From Escherichia coli (lineage in GTDB: Bacteria; Pseudomonadota; Gammaproteobacteria; Enterobacterales; Enterobacteriaceae): a DNA stretch of 64,000 bases. The position numbers and the translations under genes were made by a program. Under the pieces are notes generated by a model. It made no database searches and was not told the DNA's origin. It saw only the letters and a program-made list of their open reading frames with translations. Each line of letters starts with the position of its first letter. Position 1 is the first letter of the stretch. This document shows positions 4,440 through 58,332 of the stretch, one piece after another. The DNA lies in the NCBI GenBank assembly GCA_902500205.1, contig GCA_902500205.1_4868.1. One strand, given 5' to 3'.

Positions 4440-4448
4440 CCCCTACGA

Positions 4449-10400: not shown

Positions 10401-11570
10401 AAAGGTGAACGCGCCTTTCTGCAGGCGTTTCATGACCTCTGGATTTTTCTCCATCTCCTCGCGAGTCCATTTCTGGAGTTTCTCGATTTGTGGGCCGAGT
10501 AGTTTCTTCGCAAGGAATCCACTACCCCACGCAGTTGCTTTATCGCGAGCATTTGTTTTGCGACGTTCAGCAGTCAACGAAGAGCTGTCGCTCATGCCGA
10601 AATCGTCTTCAACACCCATGCCGAGAACAGACTCTAACAAACCACGACCTTCGCCAAATATACCAGAAATCTTCTTCTTGGTATTTTCGCGAATCATGTC
10701 CATAAACCCGTCAGCATAACGCAACGGGTTCATCCATTCCGCAGCCTGGCGTTTAACGTTCGCCCAACGGACTTCTGAGAAATCTTCCTTCGCGTAATCC
10801 GGCAATGCCGTGTTCTTCACGATGGCTTCTAAAGCAGGCGTATTACGATCGAACTCCGACTGCTTCATCTTCACGATGTCTTGAATGGCGAACAGGGTAC
10901 GGTATTGCAATTCGAGTTTCTTACGCTCGATGTTTAAGAATACCCCACGGCTTAACCCGGTTAACAGGTTAATGTCCTTCGCCATTCCAATCATGGTTTG
11001 GTGCATTGCATCCGCGCGCATCTCTTTGATGCTGTCGCGGAGCTTATCCTCTACCATGCGGTCCTGCAGCTGACGTTGTTCGTCGGCGTCCTTTGGCACA
11101 CCTGAGAATACGTCGCCCAGTTCACGATCCATCAATGCCTGATTCGGATCGTAGTTCTGGTAATCTAACTGGTCAGATTTTGACCACTTGTCGAAGCGCT
11201 TAGTAACTGCATCCGGCAAGTATTTCTTCATCGTCGGACCGAGTTGGCGCGCTTGCATCTTCAGCGTGCGCTCGGTCTTCTCAAGCTCCCCTTTCGTATG
11301 GGCGTAAATGTCCTTTGCTGCAGCTGCCGCTGACTGATAACCCTCGTATGCATCAGCTGCCGGCTTAGGCATCCCCTTGAGGATAACTTGGTCGCGTTTC
11401 CCTTCTGGCCAGATAGTTGACAACGCCGACTTCCTGGCAACATTCAGGGTACTGAGTATCGGGCTTCGTTTTTTCTCGTCTTTGGGACGGGGTGGTTCAC
11501 CGAAATCATCCCAGTCGTCGAGTCTATCTAAATCGATATCATCGAAACCGTCTTTGCCTCTTTTTGCCAT
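4449..11570 (-). CDS. giant virion protein (2373 aa) with C-terminal SLT-type lytic transglycosylase domain (phiKZ gp181-like)
   Basis: Single 7.1-kb ORF; C-terminal [35 protein letters not shown]...[10 protein letters not shown] matches SLT motifs (DNA about 5060-5440); Gly-rich low-complexity segments. Confidence 0.85.
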   Translation of the reverse strand: [2373 protein letters not shown]

Positions 11571-13232: not shown

Positions 13233-16200
13233 ATGATTTTTCTGAAACAGTTTAACCAGCGCTTTACCGTGCGCAAGACCGATGAGTTCGGTCGTCCGCG
13301 TATTATCCCGCTGGAGAAGCTCCAGCTCCCACGTGGTTCTATCTACCACACCATCGATTTAGACCAGGTGGTTTTAGCACCACCGTTAACCACACCATGT
13401 TTTGGTCAGCTGGAAAAACCGGCGATGATTCGTCACCACTTCCAGCTGCCTGAAGACGGCATTATTGGCCACCCGCGTAAGAAACCGGTTGTTGGTCAAG
13501 AGCGCCAAATCTTCCAGTACCATCGTAACAACCGTCGTATTCGTCGCATGATTGAAGACGGCGTGGTACGTTCCGATCCGAAAGTGCTGCTCATCGAAAA
13601 CTACACCCCGATGCTGCCGCATTATTTCTACCCTGATACTCTGATGTCCTGGTACGAACGTCTGCACAACATTCAGCTGCTGATAACTAACCAGATGAAA
13701 ACTGACTCACGTGAGTACATGCGTCAGAACTACTACATCATCGAACTGGGTAACGTACTGCCTTCTTTCGATCGTTTTAAAATGACGTATAACGATCGTG
13801 TTAAAACCAAACTGGAGCGCTTTAAGGACTTTAATCTCCTGTGGTTACTGGAACTGTTCGGTTGGGCTTACGGCGATCAGCAAGCAACCCTGTTTGACGG
13901 TATGGACATGAACCAGCTGTCACGTGTGAACTTTATCTTCACGCACAACGGTGGTTTTACATCCATGAACATGGGTGTAATTGAAAGAATGCGTAAGTCT
14001 GCCGGTGGTCGTTTGACTGACGTGCAGATGGGCAGAATGTTCTACCGTACACTGACTACTGTGATGACCACACCGCCGTCTACCGACTACGAAGATGACG
14101 AGTTCGTTACACCGGAAGGGGACGAACGCGTACATCTGGGAGAGGACGACGATGTTGTTGAAGCCGTTGCCAGTAAACCGGAAGAAACCCTCGATATCGT
14201 CGACGATGAAGCAACACAAAGCGACAACGTTGACGATATATTGAACGATCATGAGTTCGATGAGAAAGAAGATCTGGTCATCGAAGCGCCGAAAGAAGAT
14301 GTCAAACCAACCACCATCGTCGTAGAACGCACCATCCCACACGATGCTGTGATTAAACAGGAAGTTGAGCGCCTGGCAGAAGCGGGCCGCGTCACCGCCA
14401 AAGCGTATCAGTTCCTGAACGAATCTTCTAAACGTTTCGTAAACTTACCCAACCCGTACAATCCTAAAGAGACGTACGGCGAAGGCCTGACCATCGATCC
14501 GAAGAAACTCGAAGTTAAAGCCGAGCCTAAGAAGATTGAACGCTTAGTTACGGATGAAGCCTGGGCGGAAAATACCACCGACCAAATCATTCGTCAGTAC
14601 AACCAGGAAATCTTCCCGAAAGATATTCTGGGGGCAGTAGCGTCATCCCAACGTCTTGGTTTAGCGATTCACAATCACACTGTCGAGAAAGAGATTTCCG
14701 TTACCGGGAATATCGAACACCACACGTTGCGTATTCAGCCGATTGGCGGAGAACCAACCACGGTACGTTTCTCAATTCCTGCATTAACCGAAGACGGTAC
14801 TTGGGTTGCAAATGGTGTGGAATATACAATGCGTCGTCAGCGTGTTGATCTTCCTATCCGTAAAGTGTCCCACGATACCGTAGCGTTAACCACTGCCTAC
14901 GGGAAGAACTTTGTCCGTCGCAGTGATAAAGTCGTCAATGATTACGGACGTTGGCTCACTAATGCGATTATTACTCGCGCGGTCGATCCGAAGAACACCG
15001 AAATTACTGATGCAAAACTGGCGAATGTGTTCGATCCGCTGTCTAAACTGCCGCGTCAGTACACCGAGGTGGCACGTCGTGTAGCAGCGTTCAACGCAAT
15101 TGGGTACCAATGGAACTTTGACATTAAACAGAAAGCGGCATTCTTTAACGAAGGGCAACTGGCAGACGCGGACCGTGTCGAGCTGGTACCTGTGGCGAAG
15201 AAACCGCGGAGTCATGTCATCGTCGGTATGGATAAAAACTCCCAGCTCTATCGAGTGGATAAGGATAAGACCGAACCACTGGGTACGCTCGCCGAAGTCT
15301 TTGGCGTGGACACCTCTAAGGCTCCACGTGAAATGACCGAACTGTCACTGATGGGCAAATCAATCTCGCTGGGCTTTGTGTTTGCGTACTATCTCGGGTT
15401 AACCGGGATGTTGAAACACTTTGGTATCAGTTACGAGGTTCTCTCTGTCGGACAACGTATCGATAAAGGTCAGTTCGACTCCATTATTCGTCTCCAGGAT
15501 GCGAAAATTGCAATTGTCTGCGAGAACGATCAACAGAGGATGATTGTCAACGGCTTAGACCGTTACATTAAACATTTTACCACGTATACCGAGTCGGAAG
15601 TTGACCGGGAAGACATTTACCTGAACCTGTTACGCGATGCAGATGGGCTAACACCACGCTACATCAAAGAGCTGAAACTGATGCGGACCGCATTTGTTGA
15701 TGACATGCACGCGCGTATCCTCAGGAAAATGGGCGAGCCGGAAACCTTTATCGGCTTACTGGAGCGTTCTAACGAACTGCTGCAGACGGACCACACGTTA
15801 CCGGAAATTAACGGTGACGAAATGATGTTCATCGGGAACCAACGTATTTCGTATCACATCTACACCGCGATGGTGCGGGCGATGCGTAACTACAACAACG
15901 CGCCTAACTCAAATCGTAAGTTTGAGTTGACGCAGGACATGGTGTGGGGTGCAATTAACTCCGACCCGTCTGTTCTGCTGGCTCCTGGCGCAAACCCGGT
16001 ACAGAACATCAAAGAAAAAGATGTTGTTACCATGGGCGGTACAGGTGGTCGTAACCGCAAGACCATGGTCTACAGTACCCGTGAATTCCAACCGAGCGAC
16101 CTGGGGATTATCTCCGGTAACACGGTCGATAACGGCGACGTAGGTATCACCGCCTTTGCAACAAACAATCCGCGTTACGACACCGTGGACGGCACGACCT

Positions 16201-17438
16201 TTAAAAAGGACCTCGATAAACTGAAGCCAGGTGAGGCACTGTCATTTATTGATGGCTTGGTGCCGGATACCCTGATGGACGATGCTAAGCGTCAGAACTT
16301 CGTTGGGATTCAATTCGGTTCTGCGACCAGTTGTGTTGGCGCAACCACCACACCGTATCGTACCGAGCAAGAAAAGTTCGTGGCACACCGTACTTCTGTG
16401 AAGCACGCACGCGTAATCGATAAACCTGGCAAGATTGTGGAGGTTCTTAACGACCACGTTAAAATCAAATACGACGACGGAGAGGAAGAAGCTTTCCCAC
16501 TGGGCCGTTGGTTCGGTCCGCACGAAGGGACTTACTACCCACACACTCTGGTAACGAAATGGAAGCGCGGAGATAAACTCCCTGCCGGTGCCGTTATCAC
16601 GTACAACGAACAACACTTTGAACCAGACATCTACGATCCAACGCAGGTCAGTTTTAAAAACGGGATACTGGCAACTGTCGCTTTGATTGAAGGGGAAGAA
16701 GTAATTGAGGACTCCAACGCCATTAGTGAGCGGTTCGCTGCTAAGGCTGAAGCCGATGTTACCAAACTCAAAGAAGTCACAATGACGTTTACCCAGAACC
16801 TGTTGGAGATGGTAAAAGAAGGGGACCACGTAGACGTGGATTCAATTCTATGCACCTTCACCGACAACCTGACCGGCGATATGAGCGGGTTCAGTAAAGA
16901 AGCAGCGGAAACGCTGCGTGAGTTAAGCTCCTTTGCACCACGCTCTGGTGTTCGTGGGTTTATCGACAAAATCGAAGTGGTTTACCACGGCGAGGTGGAA
17001 GATATGACCCCGTCTTTGGCGGAGATGGTTCGTAAATACGACCGTATACGTCGGAAGACTGCGCTGGCTCTCAAACGTGACGAGCCGAAGGACGGTCGAG
17101 TCAACGGTGATTTTCGTGTTGAGGGGGTGCCGTTAGCGTACAATAGCCTGTGTGTCCGATTCTACATCACACACCGGGTAGAGATGGCAGCAGCGGATAA
17201 GATGGTTATTGCTAACCAGCTGAAAACGACGGTTCAGGAAGTGATGTATGGAACCAACAAAACGGAAGACGGGCAGGAACTCGACATTATCTTTGGTCGT
17301 GATTCCGTCGACGCACGTATCGTAGGTTCTATCATGCGCATCGGAACCACCAACGCTGTCGGGTATCGTGGTGGGGAGAATATCGGACGCATCTTAGATG
17401 GTGAAGACGTCCCAGCCTTGCCGGCTAAAATCAACTAA
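13233..17438 (+). CDS. large protein (1401 aa), function unassigned; possibly RNAP-associated
   Basis: Long ORF immediately downstream of beta-prime-like gene; no motif I can name confidently. Confidence 0.8.
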   Translation: MIFLKQFNQRFTVRKTDEFGRPRIIPLEKLQLPRGSIYHTIDLDQVVLAPPLTTPCFGQLEKPAMIRHHFQLPEDGIIGHPRKKPVVGQERQIFQYHRNNRRIRRMIEDGVVRSDPKVLLIENYTPMLPHYFYPDTLMSWYERLHNIQLLITNQMKTDSREYMRQNYYIIELGNVLPSFDRFKMTYNDRVKTKLERFKDFNLLWLLELFGWAYGDQQATLFDGMDMNQLSRVNFIFTHNGGFTSMNMGVIERMRKSAGGRLTDVQMGRMFYRTLTTVMTTPPSTDYEDDEFVTPEGDERVHLGEDDDVVEAVASKPEETLDIVDDEATQSDNVDDILNDHEFDEKEDLVIEAPKEDVKPTTIVVERTIPHDAVIKQEVERLAEAGRVTAKAYQFLNESSKRFVNLPNPYNPKETYGEGLTIDPKKLEVKAEPKKIERLVTDEAWAENTTDQIIRQYNQEIFPKDILGAVASSQRLGLAIHNHTVEKEISVTGNIEHHTLRIQPIGGEPTTVRFSIPALTEDGTWVANGVEYTMRRQRVDLPIRKVSHDTVALTTAYGKNFVRRSDKVVNDYGRWLTNAIITRAVDPKNTEITDAKLANVFDPLSKLPRQYTEVARRVAAFNAIGYQWNFDIKQKAAFFNEGQLADADRVELVPVAKKPRSHVIVGMDKNSQLYRVDKDKTEPLGTLAEVFGVDTSKAPREMTELSLMGKSISLGFVFAYYLGLTGMLKHFGISYEVLSVGQRIDKGQFDSIIRLQDAKIAIVCENDQQRMIVNGLDRYIKHFTTYTESEVDREDIYLNLLRDADGLTPRYIKELKLMRTAFVDDMHARILRKMGEPETFIGLLERSNELLQTDHTLPEINGDEMMFIGNQRISYHIYTAMVRAMRNYNNAPNSNRKFELTQDMVWGAINSDPSVLLAPGANPVQNIKEKDVVTMGGTGGRNRKTMVYSTREFQPSDLGIISGNTVDNGDVGITAFATNNPRYDTVDGTTFKKDLDKLKPGEALSFIDGLVPDTLMDDAKRQNFVGIQFGSATSCVGATTTPYRTEQEKFVAHRTSVKHARVIDKPGKIVEVLNDHVKIKYDDGEEEAFPLGRWFGPHEGTYYPHTLVTKWKRGDKLPAGAVITYNEQHFEPDIYDPTQVSFKNGILATVALIEGEEVIEDSNAISERFAAKAEADVTKLKEVTMTFTQNLLEMVKEGDHVDVDSILCTFTDNLTGDMSGFSKEAAETLRELSSFAPRSGVRGFIDKIEVVYHGEVEDMTPSLAEMVRKYDRIRRKTALALKRDEPKDGRVNGDFRVEGVPLAYNSLCVRFYITHRVEMAAADKMVIANQLKTTVQEVMYGTNKTEDGQELDIIFGRDSVDARIVGSIMRIGTTNAVGYRGGENIGRILDGEDVPALPAKIN

Positions 17439-17485
17439 TGTAGGGCGGGTCGCTCCCGCCCGGTAAATAAACTCCGGAGTTAATA

Positions 17486-17779
17486 ATGGGAATTTTAGAT
17501 ACGCTCAAGCAGCAGCATGGGATTCCGGTGGGCCGTAATAGCACGAATCCGGAAACGGAAGGTTATTCCCCACAGCAACGCATGAACTTTGTTGTTCTGG
17601 GCAATGCGGTTGAATTGGCCACCGAAATTATTCACGGACTGCTGAAGGGCAGCAATGGCCTGTCTGACCGCATGGGCGATCAGCGTTTGCTGAAACGAGA
17701 CATCGCTGATATGGTGGGTGCGCGTATTACTGGTCGCATCCAGGATTCTATCAGCACCAAAAACGGGGGTCAGGCATGA
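17486..17779 (+). CDS. small hypothetical protein (97 aa)
   Basis: ATG with GGAG 6 nt upstream; stop overlaps next start (ATGA). Confidence 0.5.
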   Translation: MGILDTLKQQHGIPVGRNSTNPETEGYSPQQRMNFVVLGNAVELATEIIHGLLKGSNGLSDRMGDQRLLKRDIADMVGARITGRIQDSISTKNGGQA

Positions 17780-37584: not shown

Positions 37585-37615
37585 CGGATATATGTTATCA
37601 TACTGAGAGTATACC
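37585..37615 (+). promoter_or_regulatory. promoter-like motif (weaker family member) GGATATATGTTATCATACTGAGAG
   Basis: Resembles the GATATTAtCT..GTGA family; lies in a divergent intergenic region. Confidence 0.3.
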
Positions 37616-45132: not shown

Positions 45133-45154
45133 AGATAGATATTACCTAAGTGAG
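45133..45154 (+). promoter_or_regulatory. recurrent promoter-like motif AGATAGATATTACCTAAGTGAG
   Basis: Family member; about 55 nt upstream of ATG at 45207. Confidence 0.4.
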
Positions 45155-45206: not shown

Positions 45207-46157
45207 ATGTACAGACCAAGTAATCCTAGCGCTATCGAAGGATTAAACCAGGATGGCTTCAGCCTCGCAGAAGCAACCCGCATTCGACCTTTCTTACCTC
45301 GCAGATTCTTCCCTTTCGGTTCGTTATACAGAACGAACTTTGACGCCTGGGAAGCGATACGTGCTGTAAAAGATGCACTACAGTACAAGAACTTCGAATT
45401 CCGATTTGTGTTCAAATGGGGCAACGGCGAATTGCTCCACTACTTCGGATTCCAACAGAACGAGTTTATTGAGTATACCTCACCTACGTACCACACCAGG
45501 TTCTTAAGTATCGAATTCGTTCGCCATTTCGGCGATGCACTCTTTACGGAACGTGCGGCAGATGAAAACCATGGACGTAGGCTGGTGTTAACGAACGGTG
45601 GATTACGCATCAAGATGAATCGTTTACGGGAAGCGTATAACCAGCTCATCAATCCTGAACCGGTAATGTTTCCAACAGTCGCAGATTTGAACGTTACACC
45701 ACTCCAGCTACCTGTGGATATAGACAAACCGATCCTGGCAATCAGAGCACTGCAGGCAGGTTACGCAAACTGGTATAAAGGGCACAGTCTCCCGAACACC
45801 AGATTGAACATCGAACCGTATGAGTTGTGTTTATTCTTAACTCTACGCAAGCGGTTTGAGCCAGATAACTTAGACTTACGTTATCTGGCTAAAACAGATA
45901 GCGGTAGTTACTACCCAACGACCTGGATGCTAGCGGCTGTACTACCCGGCGGTGAAATTATCGGTAACCCTGTCACCGATGTTCAACAGTTACCATCACC
46001 GTTAGCACCACCGAAGGATTCAATCTATCCATACGCTTCGTGGTACGCGAGTAGTATTGGCGTGAGGTGGTTGATGTTACACGTTCCCGAAGAGGTCTAT
46101 AATTTATTCCCGCATGAGCAATGGCTCCGTGCGTATGAAATTCGGTTTGGTTGGTAG
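45207..46157 (+). CDS. hypothetical protein (316 aa)
   Basis: ATG with AAAAGG upstream. Confidence 0.75.
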   Translation: MYRPSNPSAIEGLNQDGFSLAEATRIRPFLPRRFFPFGSLYRTNFDAWEAIRAVKDALQYKNFEFRFVFKWGNGELLHYFGFQQNEFIEYTSPTYHTRFLSIEFVRHFGDALFTERAADENHGRRLVLTNGGLRIKMNRLREAYNQLINPEPVMFPTVADLNVTPLQLPVDIDKPILAIRALQAGYANWYKGHSLPNTRLNIEPYELCLFLTLRKRFEPDNLDLRYLAKTDSGSYYPTTWMLAAVLPGGEIIGNPVTDVQQLPSPLAPPKDSIYPYASWYASSIGVRWLMLHVPEEVYNLFPHEQWLRAYEIRFGW

Positions 46158-47121: not shown

Positions 47122-47166
47122 AGTACCTCTACGCGAGTAGAGGTACGGAATCTTTCTTTTTTTTGT
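47122..47166. terminator. bidirectional intrinsic terminator
   Basis: GTACCTCTAC-GCGA-GTAGAGGTAC with A-run upstream and T-run downstream between convergent genes. Confidence 0.65.
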
Positions 47167-47978
47167 TACGACTTGAAGCGTCCACCGTTCATGTAGTTCC
47201 AACGGTTTCCGATGTTGTCGTTGTGGACCAGACAACGTTGCATTTTCGGCAAGGTGTCTTCGAACATTTGACCCGCGTCCGAGTAACCTTCAATAACGTT
47301 TCTGAAGGCACCGAACTCCATACCATTTTCCAGTTTACCGGAGTCCATGTCGAAGATCATGGTGTTGTAGATATATTGCTTAACAGCCATAACTGCCAGC
47401 TCACCTACAACCGGATAGAAGGCCGGCTTGATTTCGTTCATCTCCTGGGATAGTTCGTACTTCACCACGAGTTTGGTAGAGTAAACGAACATGCCTGGGT
47501 CTTTGATACGGATGGTATTCGGACCGAGCACTTCAACTTCTGGTGAGGCGATACGCGGCATCGCGGATTGACTATCAACCACTTGCTGGGTGGATGCTAA
47601 TACGCCAGAGGTGGCACCGTCCAGATATGAACCTGCGGGAGGCATGGTGTACGCCTGTCCGGCAACGGGTGTTACAGAGATATGGGCGTCCAGAATTGGG
47701 CGACCACCTGTTTTGATGTCGTCGAGATAATACACGCGACTGAAATAATCTTGCGTGTCGTTATCCCAAGGAACACCTTGCAAATCTACTTCTTGATACT
47801 GCCCCATTCTGGAGATTTCAGGGACCAGAATTTCACGAATAACGCGTTGTTGAATTTCGTTATCTACAGAGCTTGCAATTCCCAGTAACTTGAGGTTTTC
47901 TGGAACAAAAGCCGCCTGTAGAATCGGGGCAGGGATATGCTGTCTGATTTTACGCAGACAGTAGTCGATAACATTCAT
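47166..47978 (-). CDS. hypothetical protein (about 270 aa)
   Basis: Track ORF 47166..48008 begins with TTG; ATG 10 codons in (MNVIDY) has AGGAG 8 nt upstream. Confidence 0.7.
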   Translation of the reverse strand: MNVIDYCLRKIRQHIPAPILQAAFVPENLKLLGIASSVDNEIQQRVIREILVPEISRMGQYQEVDLQGVPWDNDTQDYFSRVYYLDDIKTGGRPILDAHISVTPVAGQAYTMPPAGSYLDGATSGVLASTQQVVDSQSAMPRIASPEVEVLGPNTIRIKDPGMFVYSTKLVVKYELSQEMNEIKPAFYPVVGELAVMAVKQYIYNTMIFDMDSGKLENGMEFGAFRNVIEGYSDAGQMFEDTLPKMQRCLVHNDNIGNRWNYMNGGRFKS

Positions 47979-48098
47979 TCTAAGGCTCCTATGAAGCTCG
48001 TAGGACAACTCATACCATCGGGTAATGCTATCCCATTACCTGACATTAAAATACGTTTTACGACCTTTATGTGCGCACCATACTCGAAGAAATTTTGC

Positions 48099-48118
48099 AT
48101 AGATATTATCTTCGTGAA
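48099..48118 (+). promoter_or_regulatory. recurrent promoter-like motif ATAGATATTATCTTCGTGAA
   Basis: Family member; about 25 nt upstream of operon start at 48142. Confidence 0.4.
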
Positions 48119-48141
48119 TTATCCTTAAGGAGCATTTCTCG

Positions 48142-48462
48142 ATGACGCGCATGTTCTTTAATTTCTCTCCAGGGACAAATGAACAGATTGTGCCTGCGGA
48201 CATGTTACTGTGCGCGATACAAGAAGTTATTTATCCCGGCACGCATGAGTTTCCACGTGAGTGGACACGCATTGCCGAAAGTTATTTTGGCACGGAAGCG
48301 TGGTTTGTTATTTCGGCGTTGGGCCGAAACCATCGCTATCCCTTTCATTACAAAAATGGAGTTGTGCAAACGTGGTCAGAATATACCTCGAACCAGCTGC
48401 GGTTCATTCTAGCTTCTGGGGGCCTGTCGATGCTTCCCAGTACGCTACCGCTCTGCGGATGA
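48142..48462 (+). CDS. hypothetical protein (106 aa), first gene of translationally coupled operon
   Basis: ATG with AAGGAG upstream. Confidence 0.6.
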   Translation: MTRMFFNFSPGTNEQIVPADMLLCAIQEVIYPGTHEFPREWTRIAESYFGTEAWFVISALGRNHRYPFHYKNGVVQTWSEYTSNQLRFILASGGLSMLPSTLPLCG

Positions 48463-49022
48463 GCCAAAAAGAACGCGAGATGTTAACTGTACAACTGTTA
48501 CACACTGCGCTCGAAGATATCTTTTACTCCGTTCCGGAAATGCCTAATGCACGTATGGAACCTTTGCTGGAACCTTATACTGACGCTTTTAATCTCACGA
48601 TGATGTTGGTGGCTGACCAGATCATACTCCCACCGAAAACAGTTCCTGTGGAACGTACATATGTTTCCAGTGGCGGTTTGGGTGCCCCGGTTAATAAGAC
48701 GAAAGAGACCGTAGCGATTTTACGTTCTACCGAATATCTTATCGGATTGGCATTCGAAGACTGTTACAACAGTTTCCTGGACAGTATCCATGCACTTGTG
48801 GAGAATGCTGTGAAGGCCACCAACCAGCCGTTTAATCGTTATGCGACGATTAAACTGGAACCACACATAACCCATCGTGGGCAGGTGCAATCTCTGGAGT
48901 TGCAAATTGGAGAAGACATCAGATTCATCCACTACCGCCAGTGCTTCCCAAACAAACGATATCGTCCGTCTGGTACTGATCGATCACATCGCCTCGACGG
49001 CATACGTCAGGATATTGAATGA
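48459..49022 (+). CDS. hypothetical protein (about 187 aa)
   Basis: Track ORF 48261..49022; ATG at 48459 overlaps upstream stop (ATGA). Confidence 0.6.
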   Translation: MSQKEREMLTVQLLHTALEDIFYSVPEMPNARMEPLLEPYTDAFNLTMMLVADQIILPPKTVPVERTYVSSGGLGAPVNKTKETVAILRSTEYLIGLAFEDCYNSFLDSIHALVENAVKATNQPFNRYATIKLEPHITHRGQVQSLELQIGEDIRFIHYRQCFPNKRYRPSGTDRSHRLDGIRQDIE

Positions 49023-49035
49023 CCCCAGCGACATC

Positions 49036-49344
49036 ATGTTCAGCATGTATGATGTTAATACGGGGTTGAAGCATATCATTCTCTGTATGCTCGAATACAT
49101 GATTCCGACATTTACAGAACACGGTACGTGGGACGTAGAAACAGTCTCACTGATTGTTAGGTGCTATCGTCCCAGAAGTCATTCGCGGGAAATCCACACC
49201 ATCGCGTCTCACGTTCATCGTGCTATCTGTGAGGAAATGGGCATTCCTCCGAAAGGGTATCGGTATCATTATAATCAAGCAGACAGAATTCTCCGTTTCA
49301 TTCCACGTAAGGTAACAGATGTCTATGATGACGGTTTATACTGA
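49036..49344 (+). CDS. hypothetical protein (about 102 aa), start uncertain
   Basis: Track ORF 48877..49344 overlaps previous gene; first ATG past overlap is 49036. Confidence 0.4.
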   Translation: MFSMYDVNTGLKHIILCMLEYMIPTFTEHGTWDVETVSLIVRCYRPRSHSREIHTIASHVHRAICEEMGIPPKGYRYHYNQADRILRFIPRKVTDVYDDGLY

Positions 49345-49726
49345 GTTCGTGCGATTGACTTGCCGACTCACCGCACTCGTCAAAGAGAATCTCGGCATCG
49401 ATTACCAGGATGCTGCGGTAGAGCTTGACGACTATATCGAGCAAATTGTTCGGTTGCATGTTCTGCGGAAAAAATATGGCGTTATCGATAGCATGATACG
49501 CCAGTTCTTTATGGAGTATGTTCACGATAACCCAATCATTACTCCAACCACGTCGGCAAAATACTGGGCTCTTTGTCGATTTGAGTTGTTGATACGGGAC
49601 ACCGATTGCATCTGGCAAGCAATCGACGAGGACATGACTTATTTACCACAATCCGACTTCCTCCTTTGGCATGTAGGAGATGGTGTCTGGAAAATGTTAA
49701 CTACAGGGGTTACTTACAATGATTGA
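49319..49726 (+). CDS. hypothetical protein (135 aa)
   Basis: Complete ORF in operon. Confidence 0.6.
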   Translation: MSMMTVYTEFVRLTCRLTALVKENLGIDYQDAAVELDDYIEQIVRLHVLRKKYGVIDSMIRQFFMEYVHDNPIITPTTSAKYWALCRFELLIRDTDCIWQAIDEDMTYLPQSDFLLWHVGDGVWKMLTTGVTYND

Positions 49727-50228
49727 GCGATCTCATTTTTATATCCCCGGCTATCAGTTATTGGCTGGGCCGTTAACGGAGTTTTCGCCAAACGATGTGC
49801 TCCGCGAAGTGAATGACGATTTGAACTCGATAATCAATACCGCCATGAGCTTCGTGGAACGTGGAACCATTGGTAGTGAGTTAAAGTTTATGATGAACAA
49901 TACCTTTGGGTTTGTTTCTCGTACACTGAATGCGCACGGCGTTGTGTTGGAAAATGAGCAAGTAATCACTTACGGCACCGCAATTCAAAACATCGGTCGT
50001 GCGTATATGACCGCCGTATCGCAGTCTCCTTATTGGTTTACTCACTACGGTCGTTGGGTCGGTGCACAATACACAACGCGCAATCCGGCGGATGTCGAAT
50101 TCTTATTAGACTATAACGGTGGTGATAAATTCCCACAGTTTGCCAGCCAGGAAGCGTACGAGCGAATCACCCCACAACTTCTGCCTGTTATCGATTTGCT
50201 TATCGGTAATCTCGGAGGTCGTGTATGA
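49719..50228 (+). CDS. hypothetical protein (169 aa)
   Basis: 8-nt overlap with upstream gene. Confidence 0.65.
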   Translation: MIERSHFYIPGYQLLAGPLTEFSPNDVLREVNDDLNSIINTAMSFVERGTIGSELKFMMNNTFGFVSRTLNAHGVVLENEQVITYGTAIQNIGRAYMTAVSQSPYWFTHYGRWVGAQYTTRNPADVEFLLDYNGGDKFPQFASQEAYERITPQLLPVIDLLIGNLGGRV

Positions 50229-50713
50229 GCGTTCTGTTTGATGTGGCGGATATTGCGAACCAATATAGCGCGACTCGGTTTTACGAGCATGTTCGTGAAG
50301 CGGCATTGCGTGTACTGGAAGCCAGTAACCTGGAGATTGATGAAACACAGATACGTGATTTTTATCAACGTTTTGCGTTTGCGTATATCATCGGTGTGAA
50401 AACTCGTGACCCTTCGACGATGGTTGATTTGTTACAGGAAGACACGCTTGAACCTCTGGGCAATTGGGAGTTGGTGTCCGATGGTCTGTCCGTTGACCAG
50501 TTCGCTAAGGAAACGTCTGTCGATACGACGTTTCTGGCAGCACAAGGTTCGCCCGAACAACATCAAGCCGCCTTCGGCGCTGCGGTAAGTTTGCTGGCCG
50601 AAGAGTTAACAAACTTAACTGGTTTTGCTGGGCTGATAGAGTCGCTGTATCCGGGGCGATATCAAACGTATGTGGGTGATAGTTTTAACGATGTGGTGTT
50701 AATCTGCGAATGA
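50225..50713 (+). CDS. hypothetical protein (162 aa)
   Basis: ATGA stop-start overlap. Confidence 0.65.
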   Translation: MSVLFDVADIANQYSATRFYEHVREAALRVLEASNLEIDETQIRDFYQRFAFAYIIGVKTRDPSTMVDLLQEDTLEPLGNWELVSDGLSVDQFAKETSVDTTFLAAQGSPEQHQAAFGAAVSLLAEELTNLTGFAGLIESLYPGRYQTYVGDSFNDVVLICE

Positions 50714-51141
50714 AACTGTACATGACCATAGGCGAAGTCTTCAAATATGAGTCGTTGTTGGCACGGGCCGAGATTGCTGATACTAGCGAGATCGAGCCCG
50801 CTGTCGCTTATTTGTTTCTGGCCAGTTACGCCGAATTAACGGTACGTTCTATTGTTAATGGGCTAGGTAAGGGTAAGAACTTTCTTACTTTTATTCCCCC
50901 AGACCCTGCGTTGATACTGGAACAGTTGCGCGGGATGTGGGGTACTGAAAAGGTGCTGCCTCTAAACTGCTACAGCATGAGCAGTGGGATTAAGGATGAT
51001 GTTCGGTTCTATGAAATCCTTTCCGTGATAGAACGTGTGTGGGGCATGGCTGGCTTGACTCCAGAAGACGGAGCAAAAAAGACAAAGGTTTCACTCCTTA
51101 TGAATGAAATTGGCAACGCACTCATCTGTGTTGAATGTTAA
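50710..51141 (+). CDS. hypothetical protein (143 aa)
   Basis: ATGA stop-start overlap. Confidence 0.65.
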   Translation: MKLYMTIGEVFKYESLLARAEIADTSEIEPAVAYLFLASYAELTVRSIVNGLGKGKNFLTFIPPDPALILEQLRGMWGTEKVLPLNCYSMSSGIKDDVRFYEILSVIERVWGMAGLTPEDGAKKTKVSLLMNEIGNALICVEC

Positions 51142-51150
51142 GGAGTACGA

Positions 51151-51750
51151 ATGATCTACAAGGTGATCGCCAACCACTTGATTAATGTGGACTTGGGGGT
51201 CGTGGGGTATCTTCCGGACGGTATGCGGTTTTTGGATTTGGTGGTTGACACCGTAGTCCGCCTACCGCGTATCACCGTGGAGATACCCGTAAAAGAATTG
51301 GACCAGGACGAGATACACGAACTTATACGTGAAACGCTGACTAGCTATACGTACGAGTTTCGTTGCATGTTGCCTCGCACCGACCTTACGTTCTTGCACG
51401 ACTTCTTTACGTTACTGACTGACGAGTACCGTCGGTGGAAGTTTAATGTTGCAATGGAAGCCAGCACTGAGTCACATTTTAACGGGCTGACACCATTGTT
51501 AGATTTAGCGTTGGTGTACAAAGAGCAAGACAGTTCACACTGGGCCACGCTCAAGCACTACACGTTGGATCTAATGGCGACCGCCGTAACGGAGGCAGTT
51601 ATGGCGCATTATGTTGAGCCGGTGAAGATGTTCTTAGAGGCGCATAATGGCGCTATCCGTACGTTGGTTCTCAAGGTGGACTTCCCGAAAACACCAGTGA
51701 CCAATGCTTTGGATATGAGGCTGCTTATTGATGTTCCTGAGGAGGAATAA
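51151..51750 (+). CDS. hypothetical protein (199 aa)
   Basis: ATG with AAGGAG upstream. Confidence 0.7.
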   Translation: MIYKVIANHLINVDLGVVGYLPDGMRFLDLVVDTVVRLPRITVEIPVKELDQDEIHELIRETLTSYTYEFRCMLPRTDLTFLHDFFTLLTDEYRRWKFNVAMEASTESHFNGLTPLLDLALVYKEQDSSHWATLKHYTLDLMATAVTEAVMAHYVEPVKMFLEAHNGAIRTLVLKVDFPKTPVTNALDMRLLIDVPEEE

Positions 51751-52160
51751 TGTTCGATTTACGCACACTGGTCGCTGGGCAAAAAGTTAACATTGTTTAC
51801 GACACCCCTTTGAAAGGGCAAGAGACGCGTGTAATTATTCTGGCAACCGGCGTTGGCTATGAAATGGCCAAAAGCTATATGGATGTGATGGCGGAGCAGA
51901 AGAATATCTACTCATCCATCGTCTCTCAGCCAGAAGATAACGTGAACAAATACACGTATCTGATTTTCAAAGGTGTTGACGGCAAACCAAAAGTCGCTGC
52001 CGATGCCTGGATTCGTGATGTTCAGATTATCGAAAACACGAAGGTGCGCTTCACCGTCACCCTGGATAACAAACAGGAGATTGACGACCTTAAACGCGCC
52101 CTGGCTGCCAATGGTTTCAATGATGTCGATTTTGAAATCGTTGAGAGCATTGCCGGTTAA
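51750..52160 (+). CDS. hypothetical protein (136 aa)
   Basis: TAATG overlap; GAGGAGG RBS. Confidence 0.7.
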   Translation: MFDLRTLVAGQKVNIVYDTPLKGQETRVIILATGVGYEMAKSYMDVMAEQKNIYSSIVSQPEDNVNKYTYLIFKGVDGKPKVAADAWIRDVQIIENTKVRFTVTLDNKQEIDDLKRALAANGFNDVDFEIVESIAG

Positions 52161-52164
52161 AGTA

Positions 52165-52202
52165 ATCCCACTCTTCGGAGTGGGTTATTTTTTTTTCTTT
52201 TT
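52165..52202 (+). terminator. intrinsic terminator closing the operon
   Basis: CCCACTC-TTCGG-AGTGGG followed by TTATTTTTTTTTCTTTTTT. Confidence 0.7.
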
Positions 52203-52251
52203 TCACGTATCCCGCAAGTCTTATAGCTGAGTAAAAACCAAGGGGCCAGAC

Positions 52252-54531
52252 GTGGACTACAATTCACCATTTCGTCTTAGTCAAGACGAGTATCATCGCG
52301 ACATTGACGTTATCGATGCGTACTACGAACAACTGGCGCTCTACATTCATACCGTCACCAACGGGAAATATTCTTTGGAGTTCTGTCGACAGCAGGTCGA
52401 AGAAATGTTCCAACCTGGTGGTGAGTTAGTACACGAATTCCCCGTGTGTAAGATGTGGGTGCGCAATCAAAAGACCGGCGATCGCGAAGAAAAATACACC
52501 ACGGTAGATAAACTGTTCCGTACAGTGATTGATAAGCAGATCATTTCTGCACCGTCGTTGACTTTCTATTTGCCGGAACACGTAAAGCGTTCTAAGCTTG
52601 CCGAATTTACCGCAGAGAACGTGCGTAAGCGTGCGGTGGTTAAGAAAGAGATGTATGCGGCCGGTGCTGCAGGCAACGAAGTTTTACGTATTAACAAAAA
52701 GAACGAACAGAACGCTGTTAAAACGCTGAACAACGGGATGTCTGGTGCATTCTCATCACCGTACACGGTAATCTTTAACCAGTCTTCGCACTCTGTATTG
52801 ACGTCAACCTGCCGTACGGCTACATCGTTCGGTAACGCGGGCAACGAACGTCTACTGGGCGGTAATCGTCACTACGACACGCCGTCCCGTGTTATCGACC
52901 ACTTACTGTCTATTGGTACACTGACTAACTTTGCGGAGTTCAAGAAGTGTATGGAACTCTATAACCTCCACTACCCAACAGTGGACGAGGTTATGGAAGT
53001 GGTTATGTACTCTGCAGAGTTTTACTTCCGTAACGACGAAGGGCTGGAGTTCATTCGTCACTACGTCGGTAATTGTAGCCCGCTGGTACGTGCAGCGTTT
53101 GTCTACATGGGTGACTTCTACCACCTGGCGAAATACAACGATGAATTCATGCGCGGATTTATCGGTGCGCTGATTGCCGAGGAGATGGAAGACGAGATCA
53201 CCGATTGGGATGCTGCTGAGCGCTCTATCGACGGTGACATGCAGATCATTATCTCGCAGTTCCGTACTGATATCGTGCCGTTAGGTAAGTCGTTCTCTGA
53301 CGTTAAACTCAAAGACGAAAACACGAACAAAGCGGAACCGTGGGATAAGCAGGAAAAATACAAAGAGCTGATTCGCTCAGCTGTGTATCTGCAGAAAACC
53401 ATCGGTAAGTACGCGTGCTTGATTCGTAATATCCTGACCACCAAAAACCTGCCAATCAACATTGCCAGGATGCCTGATGTGGTTCGTCGTGTTGGCGTGG
53501 TGTCTGATACCGACTCCACGATGATGACTGCACAGTGGTGGGCGCAGTGGTATACCGGTCAACATTACGGTCGTGAAGCTACGCGCGTATCGGATGCGAT
53601 GATTTATATCGCAACCCAGCACTTACGTCATCTGATGGCGAGTATGTCGGCGAATATCGGTGTGGCGAAAGAGCGTCTGTTTTTGTACGCAATGAAGAAC
53701 GAATTTAAGTTCGACTCCTTTGCGTTAACCACGAAAGCAAAACACTATTTCTCCATCATCACTGGCCAGGAAGGGCAGTTGAAGTCTGACCCTGAGTTAG
53801 AAGTTAAGGGCGTGTCTTTACGTACGTCGAACATTCCTCCGGTGGTCATGAAAGAGTTCAAACGCACGATCAAAGAACTCTGTGAGATCGTGGCACGTGG
53901 TGACAAGATTAAGATTCTGCCTCTGCTGGAAAAGGTTGCTGCAATTGAGCACGTTGTGGTGGACTCTATTCGTGCTGGTAAAGCAGGCTACCTGAAAACA
54001 ACCAACGTCAAAGACCGTAGTGCGTACTCTGAAGATGATGAAAAGAGTTACCACTACCACCGCATGTACAACGCTATCTTTGGACCGAAGTACGGCTACC
54101 TGGACGAACCGCCTTATGACGCCGTGAAGCTTCCGGTAAACCTGGAGAACAAAACAGCCGTTAAAGAGTGGCTGGAAAACATTAAAGACCCGATGATTAA
54201 GACCACCGCAACACGGTGGTTCGAAGAAAACAACTATCGTACCTATCGTACTCTGATACTGCCAGAGTTCCTGGTGGAAAACTTCGGTATTCCGCCGGAG
54301 CTGATTGATGCTGCAGACACACGTCGAAGCGCATTCTCCACAGTAGAACCTTACTATCACATTCTGGAATGTCTGGGTGTGTTCATGATGGACAAGAATA
54401 GAACTCGTCTGCTTTCGGATTACTACGGTGAGTCTGTAGATTCCGTCAAGGAAGAATTAGGTAGTGGTGAGTACGTTAAGAAATCTGAACGTGATGGAGA
54501 GGAAGAAGATGGGGAAGAAGCGGAGGAGTAA
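52252..54531 (+). CDS. hypothetical protein (759 aa)
   Basis: GTG start with AAGGGG 6 nt upstream (no in-frame ATG upstream); long ORF. Confidence 0.8.
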   Translation: MDYNSPFRLSQDEYHRDIDVIDAYYEQLALYIHTVTNGKYSLEFCRQQVEEMFQPGGELVHEFPVCKMWVRNQKTGDREEKYTTVDKLFRTVIDKQIISAPSLTFYLPEHVKRSKLAEFTAENVRKRAVVKKEMYAAGAAGNEVLRINKKNEQNAVKTLNNGMSGAFSSPYTVIFNQSSHSVLTSTCRTATSFGNAGNERLLGGNRHYDTPSRVIDHLLSIGTLTNFAEFKKCMELYNLHYPTVDEVMEVVMYSAEFYFRNDEGLEFIRHYVGNCSPLVRAAFVYMGDFYHLAKYNDEFMRGFIGALIAEEMEDEITDWDAAERSIDGDMQIIISQFRTDIVPLGKSFSDVKLKDENTNKAEPWDKQEKYKELIRSAVYLQKTIGKYACLIRNILTTKNLPINIARMPDVVRRVGVVSDTDSTMMTAQWWAQWYTGQHYGREATRVSDAMIYIATQHLRHLMASMSANIGVAKERLFLYAMKNEFKFDSFALTTKAKHYFSIITGQEGQLKSDPELEVKGVSLRTSNIPPVVMKEFKRTIKELCEIVARGDKIKILPLLEKVAAIEHVVVDSIRAGKAGYLKTTNVKDRSAYSEDDEKSYHYHRMYNAIFGPKYGYLDEPPYDAVKLPVNLENKTAVKEWLENIKDPMIKTTATRWFEENNYRTYRTLILPEFLVENFGIPPELIDAADTRRSAFSTVEPYYHILECLGVFMMDKNRTRLLSDYYGESVDSVKEELGSGEYVKKSERDGEEEDGEEAEE

Positions 54532-56323: not shown

Positions 56324-56348
56324 CAGATTGATATTATCTATGTGACAG
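56324..56348 (+). promoter_or_regulatory. recurrent promoter-like motif CAGATTGATATTATCTATGTGACAG
   Basis: Family member upstream of the abundant 617-aa protein gene. Confidence 0.4.
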
Positions 56349-56419: not shown

Positions 56420-56439
56420 GCAGATATTATCTCTGCGAA
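56420..56439 (+). promoter_or_regulatory. recurrent promoter-like motif GCAGATATTATCTCTGCGAA
   Basis: Second copy about 40 nt upstream of ATG at 56479, followed by conserved leader. Confidence 0.4.
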
Positions 56440-56478: not shown

Positions 56479-58332
56479 ATGGTAAAAATCGTTGACTCTA
56501 ACAACAACGCTCAGCAGAACAACACTCAGACTCAAGACACCGCACCACTGGGCGGTCTGGGCAACGAGACTGTAAAAGTGCAAACTGCTGTGCCGGGTAC
56601 TTCTACTGTCAGCCAATTCGATAACGCATTTGGCATCCGCAACATCAGCACCTATGCAATGCACTTCGTCAACCTCCTGGACGAGCTGAAGAAAAGCAAC
56701 GAATACCTCAACGCGTTCCGCTGGGGCACCATCGCCGGCGTGGGTAACGAAATGGGTTCCGCGGCGTATGTCGCAGGCCAGTGGCAGGGCCACTGGCTGT
56801 ATGGTATCATCTTCTTTGAACGCGGTCAGTCTCTGCGTCTGAAAGAAACTACCAACAACGGCCAGGAAGACTACTACACCATCACTGAACTGTTCAACAA
56901 AGACGTGCTGGCAGTAGTACAGAAAAACATCATGGAAGCGCATGGTCTGACCAATGCGAACTTCATGATCATCAACTCCGTACCAGACCTGGGTAAAGTT
57001 CTGGATGCTGAGTGGGCACGTACTCTGATGGGTCAGATGATGATGGGCATCTTCGGTCGTATCGCAGGCTACCTGGGTACGCTGAACCTGCGTAAGCATG
57101 ACCGTTATCAGGCTGCAGTAATGCCGCTGGAAGATGGTGCGGTTGTGGATGCTAACGGCCACGCACAGCGTGCTGATTTCGCAATCACCGTTGAACACAG
57201 CCCAAGCAACGTAACCGACGCCACTCCGACTCTGCTGGACACCAATCAGGTACAGGTGTATCCGCGTGTATCCGGTACTGGTTTCGTCAATATGCGTTTC
57301 ACCGGTCAGAAGCCTGTCGTTAACGGCGTCTACGACCTGAAACAGCTGCAGGCTGAAATCGTAGTAAGTCTGATCGATTCTCAAACTGAAGGTGCAATGG
57401 CACCGTATGAACGTCAACTGCTGCTGCTGGCTGCATTTGCAGAAATCGCGGCAATCGGTGGCTGGCGTGACCTGTTTGTGAAACGTCTGAACAAACAAGA
57501 TCGCAAGTTCTCCCGTGTGGCAGAATACCTGTCCTGGGGCGCTGACGCTCGTCCTGACGTATCCAAAATCGACGGTAGCCGTGAAGCTATCGAAGGTTGC
57601 CTGGATATGTTCGCACCGCGTGAAGCAGCACTGGTAGTTAGCCATCGTGCCGGTAACGGCCTGGGTGGTCTGTCTACTTTGCTGTCTGAAATTGCGGTCG
57701 GTTACGACAACTCTCTGAAACAGCTGCTCGCTATTCTGAATTCCATGTCCCCGCGTGATCAGAACGGCGAAGTTGTTGCAGCGACCAGCTTCACTGCAGT
57801 ATTTGCTTCTGCACTGAAAGCACAGCTGGGCGATGCCTTCAATGGTACCATCCATTGCAGCCACATCGTGAAAGCAGCCGTACCGACTGTTTCCGGTGTT
57901 TACACCGGTACTGCACAGAAACGTAGCTTCCAGGATATGGACCTGATTTCCGTTGTTACCAAACTGGGTGATAACGCGAACGACGTCTATAGCTACCTGA
58001 ACGCACAGTCCTACAGCCACCGTGAACTGAACGAGCGTCAACAGCGTATCTACATGCTGAAACTGGCCGCTTCTCTGTTCGCATCCAAAGCACCGCAAGC
58101 TACCGGTGAATCTCTGGATATGGCTATCAACCCGATCTTCGGTAAATGCCTGCTGGACTTCGTCCGTAACAACTGCACCTGGTCTATGACTGGTGTAAAT
58201 GCCTACAACACGATGGCGACCTCTCTGTTCTTCAACAACGGTGGGGAAGACTTCACGCTGTCTGGCAACGGCCTGTCTGCAAGCGGTTCCGATTTCGGTC
58301 TGGGCGTGACTCTGAGCAACTTCAAACTGTAA
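56479..58332 (+). CDS. abundant 617-aa protein, candidate chimallin (phage-nucleus shell protein); major capsid protein not excluded
   Basis: Strongly host-optimised codons; conserved leader plus AAGGAAT RBS; directly upstream of a beta-prime-like gene, mirroring the phiKZ shell-protein/nvRNAP-subunit adjacency as I recall it. Confidence 0.8.
   Translation: MVKIVDSNNNAQQNNTQTQDTAPLGGLGNETVKVQTAVPGTSTVSQFDNAFGIRNISTYAMHFVNLLDELKKSNEYLNAFRWGTIAGVGNEMGSAAYVAGQWQGHWLYGIIFFERGQSLRLKETTNNGQEDYYTITELFNKDVLAVVQKNIMEAHGLTNANFMIINSVPDLGKVLDAEWARTLMGQMMMGIFGRIAGYLGTLNLRKHDRYQAAVMPLEDGAVVDANGHAQRADFAITVEHSPSNVTDATPTLLDTNQVQVYPRVSGTGFVNMRFTGQKPVVNGVYDLKQLQAEIVVSLIDSQTEGAMAPYERQLLLLAAFAEIAAIGGWRDLFVKRLNKQDRKFSRVAEYLSWGADARPDVSKIDGSREAIEGCLDMFAPREAALVVSHRAGNGLGGLSTLLSEIAVGYDNSLKQLLAILNSMSPRDQNGEVVAATSFTAVFASALKAQLGDAFNGTIHCSHIVKAAVPTVSGVYTGTAQKRSFQDMDLISVVTKLGDNANDVYSYLNAQSYSHRELNERQQRIYMLKLAASLFASKAPQATGESLDMAINPIFGKCLLDFVRNNCTWSMTGVNAYNTMATSLFFNNGGEDFTLSGNGLSASGSDFGLGVTLSNFKL

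Follow-up and report, generated by a model that had tools for sequence, protein, structure and literature searches.

We analyzed a 64,000-nucleotide (nt) stretch of DNA (hereafter, the window) from contig GCA_902500205.1_4868.1 of an Escherichia coli genome assembly (GCA_902500205.1). Nine plus-strand genes, here called g1 to g9, span positions 48142 to 52160 and make up one transcription unit of an SPN3US-like chimallivirus, that is, a nucleus-forming jumbo phage (Table 1). In the interpretation that we favor, to which we assign a probability of roughly 0.35, this unit is an early operon for accessory factors of the phage nucleus and of replication, in which g1 to g8 most likely encode cargo-selective import factors and g5 is a candidate counterpart of the phiKZ import factor Imp2. 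We propose an import role because of the position of these genes in an array that recurs across the Chimalliviridae and because of weak structural matches between g5 and Imp2 proteins.

The 4.3-kb region has 97.4 to 99.1% nucleotide identity to about two dozen sequenced SPN3US-type phages, which belong to Seoulvirus, have genomes of about 240 kb, and come from Salmonella, Escherichia, and Proteus. In the RefSeq record of SPN3US (NC_027402), its counterpart (7435 to 11453) is annotated as nine "hypothetical protein" coding sequences (ACQ60_gp257 to gp249) followed by a "DNA polymerase." The sequence, the gene calls, and g9 are already public. In the literature that we covered, we found no statement on the function of g1 to g8 or on the family-wide architecture of the array.

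Layout and boundaries of the operon

The original prediction described a plus-strand operon of nine genes that overlap almost throughout, and the open reading frames (ORFs) and junctions are as claimed. Neighboring genes overlap at six of the eight junctions, and the other two gaps are no longer than 13 nt. The overlaps amount to 4 nt (ATGA) at g1/g2, g5/g6, and g6/g7, 26 nt at g3/g4, 8 nt at g4/g5, and 1 nt (TAATG) at g8/g9. A spacer of 9 nt, with AAGGAG inside it, separates g7 from g8, and the g2/g3 junction is either a gap of 13 nt or an overlap of 8 nt, depending on whether g3 starts at ATG 49036 or at TTG 49015. Elsewhere in the window, where junctions were counted on a crude gene map, 9 of 38 same-strand junctions overlap (24%; one-sided Fisher test, P = 0.0097; binomial test, P = 0.003). 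The packing is denser than the local norm, yet it is not extraordinary for a phage.

Recognizable Shine-Dalgarno (SD) sequences precede g1, g4, g5, g6, g8, and g9. The internal cistrons g2 and g7 lack one and start inside ATGA overlaps, as one would expect of genes coupled by termination and reinitiation. Together with the conserved overlaps, promoter-type motif, and terminator described below, this gives good support to both operon status and translational coupling. These stop/start overlaps and SD-less internal cistrons are features shared with other coupled ATGA/TAATG operons of phages and bacteria; the difference is that the products encoded in the window are not known to form one assembly.

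All nine ORFs are real genes under purifying selection, since nonsynonymous changes are far rarer than synonymous ones. In comparisons with SPN3US, pEa_SNUABM_29, and SPAsTU, the nonsynonymous rate (pN) was far below the synonymous rate (pS) in every gene, and dN/dS at unsaturated synonymous sites ranged from 0.02 to 0.28 (0.15 to 0.28 in g1). Divergence from SPN3US at synonymous sites is uneven, with a pS of 0.13 to 0.20 in g5, g8, and g9 and of 0.02 to 0.06 in g1 to g4, g6, and g7, which suggests recent recombination tracts between close relatives within the operon. By the Kyte-Doolittle scale, on which no 19-residue window exceeds 1.35, the predicted products are soluble; most of them are acidic (isoelectric point [pI] of 4.2 to 6.3, with g3 at 7.05), and those of g1 to g8 have masses of 12 to 23 kDa.

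The start of g3 is the one uncertain gene boundary. When stop-to-stop ORFs were aligned with their starts marked, the N-terminal part of g3 was conserved, in the g3 frame, ahead of the stop codon of g2, where most relatives carry a start codon. The sequence is ATG-GTG-TTG in pEa_SNUABM_29 and SPAsTU, with an overlap of about 50 nt, and ATG in several Erwinia phages. At the same position (48970 to 48978), the window and SPN3US read CTG-GTA-CTG. The stretch that follows, LIDHIASTAYVRILND, is conserved at the protein level and overlaps the conserved C terminus of g2 in another frame, and the PHROG profile of g3 reaches 23 residues further N-terminally. Given the CTG-GTA-CTG reading, g3 begins here at a noncanonical codon, at TTG 49015, or at ATG 49036 or 49045; the window phage would thus use noncanonical initiation or make an N-terminally shortened protein.

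A promoter-like motif had also been predicted ahead of g1. Such a motif is present, although not of the sigma-70 type: a scan upstream of g1 found no sigma-70 promoter, and we set that reading aside, as jumbo phages use their own polymerases. The motif is instead an AT-rich sequence, ATAGATATTATC (core GATATTATC, then nnnGTGA). In 15 relatives, among whose coding sequences identity has fallen below 30%, an alignment of the 170 nt ahead of g1 shows it to be almost invariant while its flanks diverge. With up to two mismatches, it occurs 11 times in the window versus 3.2 ± 1.9 expected, and none of 100 shuffles reached 11. Five of the eight core matches are intergenic, correctly oriented, and 32 to 141 nt upstream of plus-strand genes, namely those at 37634, 45207, 48142, and 56479, the last of which encodes chimallin and has two copies. 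Intergenic sequence makes up only about 10% of the window, so the placement of these copies is not random. Three nucleotides after the motif, four of the five copies read GTGA or CTGA and the fifth GCGA.

Jumbo phages that encode RNA polymerases (RNAPs) carry a phage-specific AT-rich motif of about 10 nt near position -10 of early genes, which is read by the virion RNA polymerase (PMC7598289). In phiKZ, TATATTAC, which resembles the GATATTATC motif, lies 80 nt ahead of gp54, the chimallin gene. The operon resembles phiKZ-like early units in having a conserved AT-rich upstream motif of this length that is shared with the chimallin gene; it differs in the consensus, which is GATATTATC in the SPN3US clade. 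Because the conserved motif is shared with chimallin and belongs to this class, we infer an early operon expressed alongside chimallin, with ATAGATATTATC probably serving as an early promoter read by the virion RNA polymerase. The genes preceded by the motif form a candidate early-gene set for the window phage.

At the other end, the strong terminator that had been predicted is indeed present. Its GC-rich 7-bp stem (52167 to 52184) is followed by a T-run of about 19 nt, and all 15 relatives inspected keep a terminator after g9. Their stems differ in a compensating manner (CCCACTC/GAGTGGG, CTCCTCGC/GCGGGGAG, CCTACCGC/GCGGTAGG, and GGGGC/GCCCC), which is good evidence that the terminator is functional, and its conservation puts the polymerase gene in a separate transcription unit. 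A second conserved element lies between the T-run and the polymerase start (52199 to 52232). It consists of TTTTTCACG and, about 10 nt later, AGTCTTATAG, is present in most clade members, and may serve the polymerase gene as a promoter of a class other than GATATTATC.

Table 1. Features of the operon and its surroundings, in window positions
Feature	Positions	Strand	Remarks
GATATTATC-type motif copy before 316-aa gene at 45207	45135-45146	+	
GATATTATC-type motif copy before 377-aa gene at 37634	37588-37599	+	
DUF7484 gene, phiKZ gp42 homologue, divergently transcribed	47166-48008	-	PF24302, E = 1e-96; BLASTP to phiKZ gp42, E = 6e-30; synteny
Conserved AT-rich promoter-type motif ATAGATATTATC	48099-48110	+	32 nt before g1 start
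SD sequence AAGGAG of g1	48127-48132	+	Read from sequence; GGAG kept in relatives
g1, 106 aa, no assigned function	48142-48462	+	SPN3US ACQ60_gp257; phrog_9874; no Pfam; orthologues in 34 loci
g2, 187 aa, no assigned function	48459-49022	+	ATGA overlap with g1; no SD
g3, at least 102 aa, no assigned function	49036-49344	+	Start uncertain: ATG 49036 or 49045, TTG 49015, CTG 48970
g4, 135 aa, no assigned function	49319-49726	+	26-nt overlap with g3
g5, 169 aa, alpha/beta fold, candidate Imp2 analogue	49719-50228	+	Best conserved among g1 to g8
g6, 162 aa, pI 4.2	50225-50713	+	Variable central insert
g7, 143 aa, no assigned function	50710-51141	+	ATGA overlap; no SD
g8, 199 aa, no assigned function	51151-51750	+	Own AAGGAG; stop overlaps g9 start (TAATG)
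g9, 136 aa, SH3DP, core gene cg1, phiKZ gp49 equivalent	51750-52160	+	PF20287
Intrinsic terminator	52167-52203	+	Stem CCCACTC/GAGTGGG, UUCG loop, T-run
Divergent family-B DNA polymerase, core gene cg2, phiKZ gp50 homologue	52252-54531	+	PF20286, E = 4e-284
GATATTATC-type motif copies upstream of chimallin	56327-56338, 56420-56431	+	

The SH3DP-linked gene array in the Chimalliviridae

The original prediction recognized no motif in any of the nine products, which was wrong for g9. This gene matches PF20287 ("SH3 fold domain associated with phage DNA polymerases") over its full length (E = 3.2e-35; 120.9 bits against a cutoff of 25; profile positions 2 to 122 of 122). It lies directly upstream of the divergent family-B DNA polymerase (PF20286), a pairing found in 90 of the 90 chimallivirus loci examined, and the polymerase has 34% identity to phiKZ gp50. 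By profile and context, g9 is SH3DP, the chimallivirus core gene cg1, which corresponds to gp49 of phiKZ, gp192 of Goslar, and gp219 of RAY (PMC10299810, Table S3). The pair was described by Iyer et al. (2021), who proposed a possible polymerase-subunit role for the SH3 protein (PMC7824862). In phiKZ, gp49 is essential, with a strong phenotype on antisense (ASO) knockdown, and physically interacts with the polymerase (PMC12571901); it received no transposon insertions in transposon sequencing (TnSeq) (PMC12676376, supplement). By analogy with gp49, g9 would be a partner of the window phage's polymerase, and a subcomplex of g8, g9, and the polymerase is plausible. As in the pair known from other jumbo phages (PMC7824862), g9 and its downstream neighbor are full length and in the canonical order of cg1 and cg2; the SPN3US clade differs in that SH3DP is the last cistron of a nine-gene operon, with a terminator before the polymerase.

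For g1 to g8, by contrast with g9, the absence of a recognizable motif was borne out by profile searches. None of the eight had a Pfam match above noise, each matched only a small PHROG without assigned function, and phmmer searches of all nine products against PDB sequences returned nothing at E values up to 1. We also rejected paralogy among g1 to g9, as all HHalign probabilities were 11% or lower.

The block is strictly kept within the SPN3US clade. A tblastn search with the concatenated products (coverage of at least 80%) found it as a colinear block of about 4.0 kb in 54 phage records from five genera (Seoulvirus, Erskinevirus, Machinavirus, Wellingtonvirus, and Derbicusvirus), whose hosts are Salmonella, Escherichia, Proteus, Erwinia, and Cronobacter, with mean protein identity dropping to about 29%. 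The predicted operon is thus conserved: all nine genes were colinear in every clade member examined, and none was scattered or absent. Nor does reannotation of start codons abolish the overlaps. Across 24 distinct related operons, the g5/g6 junction is always -4 or -1, g1/g2 is -4 in 16, g7/g8 is +9 in 16, g8/g9 ranges from -11 to +3, and g3/g4, g4/g5, and g6/g7 are nearly always overlaps of 4 to 62 nt. Iterated searches with hidden Markov models (HMMs) recovered each of g1 to g8 in 34 to 36 loci of the clade, some of them IMG/VR contigs. The roughly 60 chimallivirus loci at greater distance showed none of the eight, except for one g5 match, in the metagenomic locus L040.

Sequence divergence within the clade is pronounced. 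In phage CR5, whose polymerase is 70% identical to that of the window phage, identity is 46% for g9, 36% for g1, 35% for g5, 28% for g6, 27% for g2, and 21% for g8; g3, g4, and g7 have no BLASTP match there, yet genes of the right size occupy their places. The genes g1 to g8 evolve much faster than the polymerase, yet they are never lost or reordered in the clade.

In Derbicusvirus (Phobos and CR5; L012 6623-7976 and L013 6594-7523), SH3DP and the polymerase are separated by two or three additional small genes, and the g7/g8 spacer is widened to 57 nt. The near-identical genomes in records LR535901 to LR535917 (Salmonella phages SPFM1, 4, 6 to 10, 12, 14, 15, and 20) gave fragmented matches with 10 to 57% coverage and yield truncated, frameshifted entries for operon genes; these assemblies or their consensus look error-rich in the region.

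Beyond the clade, two IMG/VR loci, L040 (3300035491_000193, 4325-8895) and L041 (3300005076_000002, 4006-8467), have polymerases about 50% identical to that of the window phage and arrays of eight or nine genes, with g2-, g3-, and g5-like members in the same relative order. We compared the profiles of g1 to g8 with 444 array families drawn from some 60 other chimallivirus loci (3552 comparisons), and the only links were to these two loci. A widened g5 profile reached their syntenic genes with HHalign probabilities of 98% and 90% and found nothing further; the links were weaker for g2 (61%) and g3 (45%), and those of g2 and g3 are consistent with vertical descent and rapid divergence. The two loci are useful intermediates that could bridge the SPN3US clade to other chimalliviruses.

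The neighborhood of the array recurs across the family. In phiKZ, 201phi2-1, PCH45, Simmy50, and Eowyn, a divergent gp42/DUF7484 gene, which is the left border of the array in chimalliviruses, is followed by sometimes PhuZ, then small plus-strand genes, SH3DP, the polymerase, a minus-strand gp52-like gene, chimallin, and the nvRNAP beta subunit. In 51 distinct loci outside the SPN3US clade, a median of seven genes (mode, 7 to 8) is packed before SH3DP when the run is defined by gaps of at most 60 nt. Of the junctions in these arrays, 57% overlap, and their 300 genes fall into 157 BLAST families. The architecture of the array is family-wide while its sequences are hypervariable.

Chimallin itself lies 4.3 kb downstream of the operon in the window. 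Laughlin et al. (2022) identified gp244 as the diverged chimallin of SPN3US (PMC9365700). The name matches the RefSeq locus tag ACQ60_gp244 (15768 to 17621 in the record), which corresponds by coordinate offset to 56479 to 58332 of the window. BLASTP of this 617-aa protein against phiKZ chimallin gave no match, and its putative identity as chimallin comes from the work of Laughlin et al. (PMC9365700) together with synteny. The SPN3US clade lacks PhuZ at or near this locus; Erwinia phage Asesino, of the same clade, forms a nucleus without PhuZ (PMC11724907).

A possible import role for g1 to g8

The array of phiKZ offers the closest comparison with assigned functions. Its genes gp43 to gp49 occupy the same slot, after the divergent gp42/DUF7484 gene and before SH3DP's downstream neighbors (polymerase, gp52-like gene, chimallin, and nvRNAP beta), and, like those of the operon, they are small plus-strand genes in a row, several of which overlap, with SH3DP as the last. 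The phiKZ array differs in that it has seven genes before SH3DP, including the 357-aa gp43, in its wider spacers, and in having no detectable sequence homology to g1 to g8. Two of its members have been characterized (bioRxiv 10.1101/2024.03.27.586873): orf47 is Imp2, which is needed for nuclear import of the RecA-like gp152 and itself enters through Imp1/PicA, and orf48 is Imp4, on which, along with Imp5, the import of host TopA depends. In TnSeq of phiKZ, there were no insertions in gp43, gp47, gp48, gp49, or gp50, and gp44, gp45, and gp46 each tolerated 6 to 11 (PMC12676376, supplement). Given such mixed tolerance, the genes of the phiKZ array do not act as an indivisible whole, and the phiKZ data (different cargos and TnSeq) argue that the members of this equivalent array act separately. 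The original prediction had read the tight coupling as a sign of a stoichiometric complex; we found no specific support for a single complex of the operon products, and tight packing of some seven or eight small genes is general at this slot.

Under the hypothesis of an import role, the injected virion RNA polymerase would read the motif upstream of g1 as an early promoter, and all nine proteins would appear at once as infection begins, during set-up of the nucleus and of replication. The products of g1 to g8 would be accessory factors of this compartment. Their most likely role would be to license or adapt selected cargo, namely replication and recombination proteins, for import, as has been shown for Imp2 and Imp4 in phiKZ. 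In this scheme g5 would be the best candidate for the counterpart of Imp2, and g8 and g9 may work with the polymerase.

We chose g5 as the Imp2 candidate before any structure search, from gene order and size. Like Imp2, it sits in the small-gene array upstream of SH3DP, and the two are similar in length (169 aa in the window and 178 aa in phiKZ). Single queries with g5 and g6 against a large protein index retrieved only relatives, at identities of 58% or higher, and the g5 family has 18 cluster representatives among 1.84 billion proteins; a few fragmentary entries aside, these representatives have about 170 residues. From shallow alignments, AlphaFold2 gave a confident model for g5 (pLDDT, 87.7; pTM, 0.86) with the order strand, four helices, two strands, and helix, an alpha/beta fold for which no solved fold matched. 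The g6 model (pLDDT, 57.6) was too poor to compare folds, though its order of secondary structure is similar to that of g5. The central insert of g6 (alignment columns of about 120 to 155) is poorly conserved and probably disordered; g6 of the window phage and of SPN3US lacks about 22 residues of it that are found in most relatives, and metagenomic relatives (L019 and L021) lack even more.

A Foldseek search of the BFVD database with the g5 model returned two orthologues first and then A0A1S6L237 (145 aa), the best nonorthologous match (E = 1.4e-3; TM, 0.54/0.62; 12% identity). Proteins that we assign to Imp2 followed at ranks 5 (B3FK54 of 201phi2-1, 276 aa), 12 (A0A1Y0SW36 of Phabio, 287 aa), 15 ("protein 044" of phiPA3, 170 aa), and 34 (A0A2D1GRC6 of SL2, 178 aa). 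PHABIO_64 (287 aa) is a confirmed member of the family (E = 2e-43 to the Imp2 HMM), gp44 of phiPA3 was named as an Imp2 homologue by Kokontis et al., and the 201phi2-1 and SL2 entries fit gp79 and gp47 by length. Pure chance seems an unlikely explanation for four matches of one prespecified small family among the top 34 viral models. The likeness between the g5 model and Imp2 is suggestive only.

A number of observations weigh against an import role. The four Imp2-assigned matches are individually poor (E = 0.3 to 2.9; TM, 0.26 to 0.35) and are not independent, three of the four were assigned by organism and length alone, and the weak-match lists of both g5 and g6 are rich in chimallivirus proteins, so that composition bias is possible. 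HMMs of g1 to g8 built from 11 to 38 orthologues found nothing in phiKZ-type arrays. Against a trimmed Imp2 alignment (phiKZ gp47 and phiPA3 gp44), g5 reached HHalign probabilities of only 1.3 to 1.8% (E = 0.03 to 0.04), even with the 38-sequence g5 profile. For g6 and Imp4, the probability was 48% (E = 1.8e-4) with the 201phi2-1 gp80 group and 32% with the merged Imp4 family, in which that group is linked to phiKZ gp48 at 89.5%; with E values of 2e-4 to 5e-4 per comparison, this is not significant over 3552 comparisons. Imp2 and Imp4 have been reported to be confined to Pseudomonas phiKZ-like phages (bioRxiv 10.1101/2024.03.27.586873), the early-promoter assignment comes from the similarity and sharing of a motif, and we found no localization, interaction, or genetic data for the nine SPN3US genes in the literature that we covered. 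Judged by sequence, none of g1 to g8 appears to be Imp2 or Imp4. In the course of these comparisons, every gene initially matched the Imp2 cluster at 99% HHalign probability, an artifact of C-terminal extensions that disappeared after trimming to the core.

A broader form of the hypothesis, which we regard as doubtful, is that the array of about seven or eight genes upstream of SH3DP, polymerase, and chimallin is one ancient Chimalliviridae module that encodes the cargo-selective import layer and has diverged past recognition. Genes g1 to g8 would then be orthologues or equivalents of phiKZ gp43 to gp48, with g5 as Imp2 and perhaps g6 as Imp4, and their fast evolution would come from tracking cargo surfaces and interfaces with PicA/Imp1.

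Alternative explanations and implications

The main rival is a role in the replisome, at least for g8 together with g9. Genes g1 to g8, or a subset such as g8, could encode subunits or loaders that act with SH3DP and a clampless polymerase (processivity, primosome, or SSB-like functions), made in fixed ratios and partly in a stoichiometric complex. The setting lends this some appeal: the operon closes with SH3DP, the polymerase's partner, the polymerase gene is immediately downstream, the stop of g8 overlaps the start of g9 (TAATG; between -11 and +3 nt throughout the clade), the genes are without exception conserved together, and no sliding clamp is recognizable in these phages (PMC7824862). 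However, searches of the products detected no domain for binding nucleic acids, no ATPase domain, and nothing clamp-like. No replication protein matches the fold of g5, and the proteins are acidic (pI 4.2 to 6.3, with g3 at 7.05). The polymerase belongs to a separate unit beyond a strong terminator, and three genes of the phiKZ array are dispensable. Parts of a replisome are, moreover, usually far better conserved than the 21 to 36% identity seen here at 70% polymerase identity. We consider a replisome role unlikely on balance.

Alternatively, the eight small proteins might be early host-takeover or antidefense factors, each with its own target in the host or its defenses, in which case the packing would reflect genome economy. 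Small, acidic, lineage-restricted, fast-evolving products without a known domain, behind an early-type promoter motif, are what such genes would look like, and the dispensability of gp44 to gp46 in the equivalent phiKZ array fits as well. Such genes normally vary in presence and order, however, whereas all eight are kept in order across phages of Salmonella, Escherichia, Erwinia, Cronobacter, and Proteus. Their dN/dS values (0.02 to 0.28) give no gene-level sign of positive selection, and the position of the array beside the core nucleus and replication block is kept family-wide. Retention in fixed order across five host genera, together with purifying selection, argues for partners in the phage machinery rather than host-specific targets, and we judge host takeover improbable. 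Least probable of all, to the point of being very unlikely, is chance compaction of unrelated hypothetical genes with accidental overlaps: overlaps are common in phages (24% of the other same-strand junctions in the window) and the products share neither paralogy nor a domain, but the overlaps are enriched (P of about 0.01) and persist below 30% identity, the genes share a single promoter motif and terminator, and they co-occur strictly.

What we describe is thus an ordinary-looking phage operon with one known member and eight orphan genes, and it provides a testable lead on import adaptors outside Pseudomonas phages. At present, phiKZ alone has named cargo-specific factors (Imp2, Imp4, and Imp5), which according to published work occur in Pseudomonas phages only. 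If the array does the same job in SPN3US-type phages, every chimallivirus would carry a set of adaptors at a fixed genomic address, and that address would be a rule for finding adaptors in any new nucleus-forming phage. The idea would be testable in Salmonella and E. coli, and SPN3US has an amber-mutant genetic system. If g1 to g8 are instead parts of the replisome, the accessory proteins that a clampless polymerase is missing might be found among them.

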